This document shows, piece after piece, positions 13,691 to 16,644 of a stretch of DNA of 64,000 bases. The DNA is from Eledone cirrhosa. Its lineage: Eukaryota. The stretch spans positions 22,196,001-22,260,000 of the forward strand of contig OZ024749.1 of NCBI GenBank assembly GCA_964016885.1, given 5' to 3'. The position numbers were made by a program, and so were the translations under genes. The notes under the pieces are model-generated. The model worked only from the letters and a program-made list of their open reading frames with translations, was not told where the DNA came from and searched no databases. The first letter of the stretch is position 1; every line of letters starts with the position of its first letter.

Positions 13691-15257
13691 TATTTATAAA
13701 CACACACACACAGAAACAGTTGCCGAAAGTAATGCGGAGCTGACTCGAAGCAGAGGAAGAAAAAAAAAAAATGAAATATCATAACAATACAAAACATTAT
13801 AACATATTGTTCCAAGGTAAAAAATAACGTTTTTTCTCTCACACGGTCATGCCAAGGAAGAAATGTGTAACGGGTAAATATAAATTAAACTGTATATATA
13901 CGTAAAATGAAAAAACAAAAAAGCTGATATGAAAACGGACAAATTAGATATATAGATAGCAGTAATTATTTTAACTTGTCGTTGACCCCTGCTTGTGTAT
14001 TTCTAAATCAAATTTTGTGTAGTTGTAAATCTAATTTTGCGCAGAAAGTTTACATATACTTCGTGTCAAATATTTCGTGTTGTTCTTACATGTTCAAAGA
14101 TGGTTTAAAAGACTTATAATACTCATAAAATGTTCACATGTTTATAACAGTCATTACGAAGGTTTCACGAAATCTGACACTGGGTCATGACTCTCTCCTC
14201 AAAGATTTGCAGAATTCTATATTTTGTTTATTTGTATTTTAGAATACATTTTATAATATATTATATAAAGAAATTGCTTAAAGAATCCTGACACGTACAT
14301 ATTTGGCTAAATTTAGATAAACTGGAATGATGGTTTATTCACCTAAAATGGTGGCCTTTGGTGAAATACTAGACGCGGGAAGTAACGTTATGAGGTGATG
14401 ATAACAAAAGAATGATAGGAAAAAATAACAGAAATGAGAGAGTGAGAGGGGGAGGTGAGAGAGGGGAGGAGGGGGAGAGAGGGGAAGAAAGAAAACTGGT
14501 TAACGGAATAAAAACATATATCTGATTGTTTTATCCCTCTATCTTTAGAGAGTGAAGGAAGACACACGCATATACACTTTCACACACACACACACAAACA
14601 CACACACATTCACACTTTCACACACACATACATATATATATACATACATACATGTGAATATATATAAATGCATATTCAAAAATATGAAAACGCATATAAT
14701 ATATATATATGTGTGTGTGTGTACTTATATATATATATATATATATATACACACGCATGTATATAAATGATTGTTTTTATTCCTCCATGTATATAACATA
14801 TTACTCATTTCTCTCTCTCTCTCTCTTCTCTATATATATACACATGTGTAGAGATGACCTTATACCACAAAGCAATGATAGAAAATGTTGGCTCTGATTT
14901 CTTTTTCGTTTTGTATGTACCTCACTGAATATATAAATAATTTAGTTCATCATATATACCATATATATGTACTATACTCTCTCTCTCTCTCTCTCTCTCT
15001 CTCTCTCTCTCTCTCTATATATATATATATATATATATATATATATATATATATATATATATATATATATATATATATATATATATATATAAAGAATTAA
15101 TATCTAGTAACATATATATACATACAGATGCATATCAATGCTAGCAAATATATAGGTTTTGTCATAGTAACTTTGTGGTTCAATGCATGGGGTTGCAGAA
15201 CAATAATATGAGAGACGTAAAATAAGAAAATTATAAAATTATCTTACTAAAATATCA

Positions 15258-15337
15258 CTTCCAACTAATTAGTTTCTGGAATGGAGTAAATATATTTTCC
15301 GAAGAAGACATGGAGAAACATTCCGTCGTCAGGGAAG
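15258..15337 (-). ncRNA. Hammerhead ribozyme, family A (inverted copy)
   Basis: Reverse complement of cttcc-CTGACGA-cggaatg...cattcca-GAAA-ctaattag-TT-ggaag. Confidence 0.78.
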
Positions 15338-15431
15338 ACTATTCTCATCTAAGTATCCAGGCAAAGCGTGGACTCTGGAAACTTATTAAAAAATAATTCA
15401 GTGGATAGGAAATAGCAAAGCGTGGACTGAA

Positions 15432-15510
15432 TTCCCTGACGACGGAATGTTTCTCCATGTCTTCTTCGGAAAATATATTTACTCCATTCCAGAAACTAAT
15501 TAGTTGGAAG
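15432..15510 (+). ncRNA. Hammerhead ribozyme, family A copy 1
   Basis: ttcc-CTGACGA-c-ggaatg..cattcc-a-GAAA-ctaattag-TT-ggaa. Confidence 0.78.
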
Positions 15511-15953
15511 TGATAATTTAGTAAGTAAGTTAATTTTATAATTTTCTTATTTTACGTCTCTCATATTATTGTTGTGCAACCCCATGCATTGAACCACAAA
15601 GTTACTAAGACAAAAACCTATATATTTGCTAGCATTGATATGCATCTGTATGTATATATATGTTACTAGATATTAATTCTTTATAATTATCTCCAAATTA
15701 TTTGTCGAGCAATATCGGCCATGACTGCTGCTATGGTAGCAGGCAGGCCGCTGTCTTATTAGCAAACCACTTTCCACTGATTGACCTCGATGTCACGTGA
15801 TTGATTCTTTTTGAATTTGCCACAGACGCAGAGGCAGTGATTTTCTCAATGGCTAGGAATTCAGTCCACGCTTTGCTATTTCCTATCCACTGAATTATTT
15901 TTTAATAAGTTTCCAGAGTCCACGCTTTGCCTGGATACTTAGATGATAATAGT

Positions 15954-16033
15954 CTTCCCTGACGACGGAATGTTTCTCCATGTCTTCTTCGGAAAATATA
16001 TTTACTCCATTCCAGAAACTAATTAGTTGGAAG
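15954..16033 (+). ncRNA. Hammerhead ribozyme, family A copy 2
   Basis: Stem I cttcc/ggaag, stem II ggaatg/cattcc enclosing ~35 nt, palindromic stem III, GUU site. Confidence 0.8.
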
Positions 16034-16471
16034 TGATATTTTAGTAAGTTAATTTTATAATTTTCTTATTTTACGTCTCTCATATTATTGTTCTCCAACC
16101 CCATGCATTGAACCACAAAGTTACTAAGACAAAACCTATATATTTGCTAGCATTGATATGCATCTGTATGTATATATATGTTACTAGATATTAATTCTTT
16201 ATAATTATCTCCAAATTATTTTTCGAGCAATATTGGCTATGACTGCTGCTATGGTAGCAGGCAGGCCGCTGTCTTATTAGCAAACCACTTTCCGCTGATT
16301 GACCTCGATGTTACGTGATTGATTCTTTTTGAATTTGCCACAGACGCAGAGGCAGTGATTTTCTCAATGGCTAGGAATTCAGTCCACGCTTTGCTATTTC
16401 CTATCCACTGAATTATTTTTTAATAAGTTTCCAGAGTCCACGCTTTGCCTGGATACTTAGATAAGAATAGT

Positions 16472-16551
16472 CTTCCCTGACGACGGAATGTTTCTCCATG
16501 TCTTCTTCGGAAAATATATTTATTCCATTCCAGAAACTAATTAGTTGGAAG
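16472..16551 (+). ncRNA. Hammerhead ribozyme, family A copy 3
   Basis: Same motif as 15954-16033. Confidence 0.8.
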
Positions 16552-16644
16552 TGATATTTTAGTAAGTAAGTTAATTTTATAATTTTCTTATTTTACGTCT
16601 CTCATATATATATATATATATATATATATATATATATATATAAA

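Follow-up and report, generated by a model that had tools for sequence, protein, structure and literature searches.

A non-coding hammerhead retrozyme of Eledone cirrhosa has two fixed ends in (TA)n and is likely copied in trans by a Hydra-type PLE

Introduction

The genome of Eledone cirrhosa (3.0 Gb, rich in microsatellites) contains, flanked by (TA)n, a short array of ~520-bp repeats with a hammerhead motif in each unit. How is such a non-coding repeat copied, from which RNA template, and by which enzyme? The array was analysed within a 64,000-nucleotide stretch of DNA, hereafter the window (assembly GCA_964016885.1, contig OZ024749.1, positions 22,196,001 to 22,260,000 of the forward strand). 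An initial annotation, made from the sequence letters alone, had proposed reverse transcription from one fixed site on a circular or multimeric RNA. In the accessible portions of published work, both the recruitment of Penelope-like elements (PLEs) by retrozymes and the one-ended tails of PLEs are stated as open.

Organization of the array

The stretch from 15091 to 16604 holds only stop-to-stop frames shorter than 120 aa and has a GC content of ~0.31, in keeping with the non-coding, low-GC character of non-LTR retrozymes. Four type I hammerhead motifs were located in it, the number given in the initial annotation, and the tandem monomers of ~520 bp described there correspond to units of 523 and 518 bp between predicted cleavage sites, 97% alike (Table 1). 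The tandem arrangement, with one type I hammerhead to each unit, is likewise a feature of non-LTR retrozymes. Position 1 of the monomer is the base directly following the predicted cut.

The array is composed of two arms joined head to head. The TTCC microhomology that had been noticed at the inversion is a 4-nt overlap of the arms; since the first hammerhead motif of the forward arm begins at this junction, its stem I has only 4 bp. The inverted arm ends at window 15088-15092, that is +175..179 after the predicted cut, and runs into (TA)n. This end is designated S2, and the end of the plus arm S1. A divergent 1.1-mer, also annotated before, was recovered as a minus-strand copy of ~1.1 units with 77% identity and represents subfamily A2 of the repeat family, which we call family A. 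One fixed 3' end had been assigned to both loci: both do stop 57-62 nt past the cleavage site in (TA)n, but the second fixed end, S2, had been overlooked. The monomer had also been considered longer than typical. It does exceed the 170-400 nt given for retrozyme monomers in the accessible part of PMC7229834, but falls inside the 51-972 bp given for non-LTR retrozyme units in that of bioRxiv 10.64898/2026.07.22.740005, so its length is no novelty.

Table 1. Positions of family A features and of the P1 element in the window
Feature	Position	Strand	Remarks
Left-flank target, (TA)n	15016..15091	.	repeat scan
Inverted arm	15088..15435	-	monomer positions 350-522, then 1-179; ends at S2
Hairpin 1 of inverted arm	15178..15203	-	bulged motif 3' of S1; intact
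Hammerhead motif, type I	15258..15337	-	predicted cleavage after 15263 (GUU)
Head-to-head arm junction	15432..15435	.	TTCC microhomology
Plus arm	15432-16607	+	overlaps minus arm (15435 to 15088) by TTCC
Hammerhead motif, type I	15432..15509	+	5'-truncated start of forward arm; predicted cleavage after 15505
Full monomer 1	15506..16028	+	
Monomer 1, hairpin 1	15569-15594	+	one stem mismatch
Monomer 1, hairpin 2	15689-15710	+	intact
Hammerhead motif, type I	15954..16033	+	two-part stem II; predicted cleavage after 16028
Hypervariable dinucleotide 473-474	15979..15980	+	here all four units have CA
Full monomer 2	16029..16546	+	
Monomer 2, hairpins	16088-16113, 16207-16228	+	each with a mismatch
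Hammerhead motif, type I	16472..16551	+	predicted cleavage after 16546
Terminal 57-61 nt up to S1	16547..16607	+	last unambiguous base 16603
Right-flank target, (AT)n	16604..16647	.	
A2 1.1-mer	34143..34720	-	ends at S1; (AT)n both sides
A2 1.1-mer, hammerhead	34279-34198	-	
A2 1.1-mer, hairpins	34666-34641, 34549-34527	-	
Hydra-type PLE copy P1	54752..59688	-	5'-truncated, frameshifted; member of a candidate partner family; its own S2 end lies in (TA)n

The hammerhead motif

The predicted family A ribozyme is atypical in its GUU site, in having unpaired nucleotides at the lower end of stem II and in the two-part stem II. In 20 diverse copies, 89.6% of stem cells were paired, compared to 80.2% in shuffled and 31-50% in slid controls. 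Changes on both sides were found at 2/5 pairs of stem I, 2/6 of stem IIa and 7/9 of stem IIb, which upholds the covariation of stems I and II reported in the initial annotation, the test being inflated by kinship among the 20 copies. Stem III, described there as invariant, was indeed nearly unchanged and is therefore uninformative for covariation.

The minimum-energy fold of the isolated window motif was not a hammerhead (z 0.66), that of the divergent A2 motif was nearly one, and the whole unit folded better than any of 100 shuffled sequences (z -2.58). An Rfam scan for the hammerhead gave no match at the gathering score and, by E-value, only chance miRNA-type matches; a tRNA scan found none. 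We infer from the motif that multimers of the retrozyme would self-cleave. According to the accessible part of bioRxiv 10.64898/2026.07.22.740005, 8 of 9 predicted retrozyme dimers failed to cleave.

Two fixed ends across the genome

A genome pattern search found 1137 exact S1+TA and 402 exact S2+TA junctions, while reversed controls gave 0. DNA searches returned 1953 and 3346 candidates, the best 40 of each being scored. The repeat is thus present in more than 1000 dispersed copies, from monomers to multimers, as retrozymes are. A tally of 89 A1 and 30 A2 insertions was assembled from the best matches and a hammerhead-loop pattern, and is biased to long, young copies; loci L140 and L173, the other-subfamily parts of L037 and L143 and matches below 55 nt were left out.

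Outward 3' ends lie at S1 (+57..61 after the cleavage site) or S2 in 125 of 139 cases for A1 and 37 of 42 for A2; scattering along the monomer, which would have spoken against a fixed start, was thus not seen. Both sites run into (TA)n, and TA repeats receive 124/139 of the A1 and 32/42 of the A2 ends, a target preference like that of Hydra and Naiad elements. Family A therefore has two fixed 3' ends downstream of the hammerhead, as a PLE-type tail does. The 5' ends, by contrast, are scattered, with a mild excess at 440-460 or, more broadly, 440-480, and arms reach up to 11 units.

Inverted insertions pair S1 with S2

All 63 inverted insertions with two canonical ends combine S1 with S2. The 50 inverted A1 insertions divide into 39 with S1+S2 and 11 in which one of the ends lies elsewhere; the corresponding numbers for 13 inverted A2 insertions are 10 and 3. 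Neither S1+S1 nor S2+S2 occurred in the tallied inversions of the two subfamilies. Fourteen further S1+S2 pairs, and no S1 partner, were seen by eye among the first 30 of the 1137 S1 matches, a count that leaves out one duplicate, one ambiguous copy, one cut copy and one ending at +197. Partner ends in this sample were taken by reading the loci, because the second-end pattern also matched internal sites. Most arm junctions show short overlaps, -4 in the window.

An inverted, 5'-truncated copy with the tail at one end only is an arrangement of PLE type. As a sequence pattern, two start sites together with inversion and (TA)n targets are the published PLE "tail" signature.

The RNA template

Of the first 30 S1 matches, all on one contig, 29 cross the cleavage site and none stops there; the template must therefore have been a circle or an uncleaved multimer. 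Reverse transcription from a fixed site on such an RNA, as initially proposed, agrees with the internal fixed ends and the read-through seen genome-wide, with the amendment that there are two start sites, not one.

With locus L045 left out, shared minority variants amount to 10.3 per kb within the same arm, 9.7 between opposite arms and 2.0 between loci. In 30 of 35 inverted loci the arms show no mismatch at lineage columns, only 9 of these sharing a minority allele, the informative case. Six variants are common to both arms of L044. L020 clearly had two templates, and at L112 six variants are common to the plus arm only, its arms coming from different templates. That units within an insertion share minority variants indicates that one unit was copied repeatedly somewhere in the lineage, for which a circle is the simplest explanation. 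We consider a circular RNA the probable template. Copying of a circle beyond one unit is already a published model (PMC4209133, PMC7229834, accessible portions). A search for source-to-daughter pairs by rare shared variants found only scattered pairs, likely recurrent mutation.

Some long arrays were observed on the way. L171 (G000:C1:152491500-152500500) is an A2 array of ~12.6 units with mixed patterns of 5-9% divergence among them, whereas the 11 units of the A1 array L045 are uniform. L140 (G000:C1604:1-9900), on a small contig, has two facing arrays with alternating CA/TT units, possibly an assembly palindrome or a dimeric template.

A hypervariable dinucleotide

At the base of stem IIb, monomer positions 473-474 vary from unit to unit in 34 of the 55 A1 insertions that have several units and are uniform in the other 21; counted within single arms, the two positions vary in 23 of 45. 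The values elsewhere are 76/2120 (3.6%) for other TA sites, 31/432 for CpG columns and 0/59-60 for the hammerhead junction. A hand count of 100 listed matches gave TG 26, TA 25, CA 24, AA 11, GA 6, TT 4, CG 3 and AG 1. Between units all four bases, 2-nt deletions and small insertions occur, double changes being rare and length mostly conserved. No clear counterpart of this hot spot was found in A2.

CpG decay was rejected as the cause, CpG columns varying far less. Assembly error is unlikely, since the alleles occur on both strands, although only a C/T variant was seen in independent contigs. Contigs from two runs of one sample, of a kind not on record, have TA loose ends at 15566. ADAR editing would account for G and C alleles, but not for deletions. 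The pattern suggests a copying error at every pass; with TA at the centre of the alleles, a UA-specific lesion, nick or scar misread each time may be responsible.

A Hydra-type PLE and a common hairpin

The window also contains a copy of a PLE, P1, with a unit of ~4.9 kb. It carries the Hydra-clade motifs RWR, DKT, CxCx5C, CxxC and CxH; its C-terminal GIY-YIG domain scored below the cut-off in the window copy and above it in the homolog P0040. In 15 stretches examined, P1 copies end in (TA)n at ~+52 or ~+155 after their own hammerhead, and 5 of 5 inverted copies among them are S1+S2. P1 also reads through its hammerhead. A structural search with P1 found no solved relative, and a homodimer prediction for residues 1-480, run without an alignment, gave no answer (score 0.00).

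A predicted bulged hairpin with a three-base stem, an upper stem-loop and a two-pyrimidine bulge lies 5-10 nt beyond each start site. The motif occurs exactly twice in each of A1 (67, 185), A2 (67, 183), P1 (61, 162) and a further Hydra-type PLE, P2 (62, 161), with compensatory changes. Shuffled monomers contain 0.19 motifs each and matched at both places in 0 of 2000, a test that is partly circular because the motif was defined after seeing family A and P1. After that, three distant repeats and one more PLE fragment proved to contain it too; it is absent from the tail of family B, a second hammerhead repeat family. The hairpin is a likely binding site for the PLE protein.

The likeness does not extend to sequence homology. 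BLAST of the family A monomer against 30 P1 loci gave no match, and tail alignments gave z 1.2 and 0.7 against P1, not significant, and 1.3 and 2.6 against P2. Homology pointing to derivation from a PLE pLTR was thus not detected in comparisons with P1 and P2, two of many PLE families, whereas Xenopus retrozyme families with such homology are described in the accessible literature. At least 8 other Hydra-like fragments exist in the genome, so the partner's clade is likelier to be right than the exact family. Mobilisation of family A is very probably driven by a PLE, and there is a good chance that this PLE is of Hydra type.

Two further Hydra-type families were noted in the window. P2, with an inverted part (42820-44900+, hammerhead near 42800-42870-), is young, with many copies at 95-98% protein identity. 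P3 is represented by its endonuclease end (25260-25560-) and must be very recent, since all 150 scored copies are identical over 86 aa. Its 3' region has a 12-nt match to the family A S1 flank, possibly by chance; searches did not recover its 5' regions.

Discussion

We regard the 520-bp hammerhead repeat as a non-coding non-LTR retrozyme with two fixed ends in (TA)n, likely copied in trans by a Hydra-type PLE and probably from a circle. In the proposed mechanism, multimeric transcripts would self-cleave, the palindromic stem III favouring a dimeric ribozyme, and cleaved monomers would be ligated into circles. The two hairpins would each load one PLE protein, whose GIY-YIG domain would nick both strands of (TA)n; priming would start at S1 on one strand and at S2 on the second, with 4-6 nt of TA homology. 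The two cDNAs would extend across the junction and continue for as many as 11 units before halting at scattered places; microhomology would then join them head to head, unless one arm is lost. Some templates would carry a lesion or scar at U473-A474 that is misread on each pass. Whether both sites are usually used on one RNA is an even call. More tentatively, the PLE tail may be a two-hairpin platform by which one circle loads two PLE subunits priming both strands at once, with retrozymes mimicking the structure without homology and positions 473-474 recording passes over a scarred circle.

Several other readings share part of this evidence. The same machinery and start sites could act on a linear multimer that is transcribed from a tandem array and stays uncut. 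Read-through fits this equally well and is found in P1 too, arrays of 11 (L045) and 12-13 units (L171) exist, some variants are confined to subsets of units (L045, L141, L148), and uncut RNA was the main template of the anole PLE in vitro (PMC11167929, accessible part). Arrays copied in this way could only shrink over generations, however, yet many sub-lineages have multi-unit, internally uniform arrays; no ordered unit pattern was found to recur between loci, and the hammerhead stems are kept with compensatory changes. We consider an uncut template rather unlikely. It is improbable that the template was a monomer in linear form, open at 473/474 with stem II keeping it closed, and that tandem units were produced by repeated template jumps adding untemplated bases. 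Such jumps would explain the substitutions, deletions and insertions at 473-474 and the unchanged hammerhead junction, but length is mostly conserved there, 21 of 55 insertions are uniform, the excess of 5' ends at 440-480 is only mild, and no known mechanism produces ends of this kind; the variation can also be put down to a modified base or a nicked circle.

Expansion of short insertions at the DNA level, by unequal crossover or conversion as in a minisatellite, has been proposed (bioRxiv 10.64898/2026.07.22.740005, accessible part) and agrees with the non-adjacent shared variants in L045 and the mixed units in L171. As it accounts for neither the fixed ends nor the S1+S2 rule, and leaves the hot spot and inverted arms of more than one unit unexplained, we hold it to be quite improbable as the origin of the arrays; it may have shaped the longest of them. 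A LINE-type element with ordinary twin priming is very improbable. Two LINE-type elements do lie in the window, but no poly-A or common 3' end was seen. In LINE-1 twin priming the second site is not known to be fixed, nor the arms to overlap in sequence, whereas here the second site is fixed, the arms overlap and the architecture is that of P1.

The comparisons that follow refer to the accessible parts of the cited sources. Family A resembles metazoan non-LTR retrozymes (PMC7229834; bioRxiv 10.64898/2026.07.22.740005) in its tandem, low-GC, non-coding units with one type I hammerhead each, short palindromic stem III, size, and PLEs in the same genome, and differs in the long two-part stem II and the GUU site. 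Two mapped start sites, strict S1+S2 pairing and a hairpin in common with PLEs are not described there. With PLE tails (PMC11167929, PMC8557442, PMC3846280) it has in common two start sites downstream of the hammerhead, a one-ended tail, an inverted 5'-truncated copy, AT-rich targets and a protein-binding region 3' of the start sites, found in published PLEs and predicted here. The tail is longer, 118 nt in family A and ~100 in P1 compared to 30-40 in published PLEs. Homology of the start sites to the target amounts to 4-6 nt of TA, in contrast to the anole sites, which are reported as non-homologous; the anole bulk assay showed no strand difference, whereas family A insertions use one site per end (PMC11167929). 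P1 shares its C-terminal GIY-YIG, the five motifs, the hammerhead and (TA)n targets with the Hydra clade (PMC8557442), but has a ~4.9-kb unit instead of <3 kb, the placement being by motifs. Non-autonomous Chlamys elements such as MRC1 (PMC8557442) are also PLE passengers with head-to-tail multicopy insertions; unlike family A, they have 3' sequence in common with their partner and mostly lack hammerheads.

Published work thus already includes the one-ended tail, the pair of start sites, inverted copies, targeting of (TA)n, copying of a circle and a link to PLEs (PMC11167929, PMC8557442, PMC3846280, PMC4209133, PMC7229834, bioRxiv 10.64898/2026.07.22.740005). The strict S1+S2 count, the common hairpin and the hot spot were not found in literature searches that missed most subscription papers, and such families or tails may be listed in supplements. 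Family A offers three features that the in vitro PLE assay described in PMC11167929 can address directly: a candidate cis element in the form of two hairpins common to Hydra-type PLEs, an all-or-none rule for the pairing of ends, and a putative mark of errors made at each pass. For RNA-templated insertion tools, a short RNA structure directing two-strand priming into (TA)n would be of interest.

Neighbouring elements

Family B, with a stem II of ~95 nt, has three copies in the window (3555-3676+, 17066-17190+ and 48549-48670+), all ending ~185 nt after the site in (TA)n. Minimal type I hammerheads mark further repeat families at 23077-23119+ and 20803-20847-; the one at 20500-21000 has a ~470-bp unit and is tandem in L015. 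Distant ~480-bp hammerhead repeats keep hairpin 1 at L024:3140-3228-, L032:1185-1270+, L216:2552-2643- and L221:~160-320+, those of L024 and L032 also having a hairpin 2-like element. A non-LTR element at window 7701-10654-, with reverse transcriptase and a restriction-like endonuclease end, is split by an (ATGT)n insertion, and a frameshifted LINE-type element at 26855-32130+ has a first ORF and an endonuclease-reverse transcriptase frame. A 2.2-kb (CAC)n repeat occupies 38096-40351.
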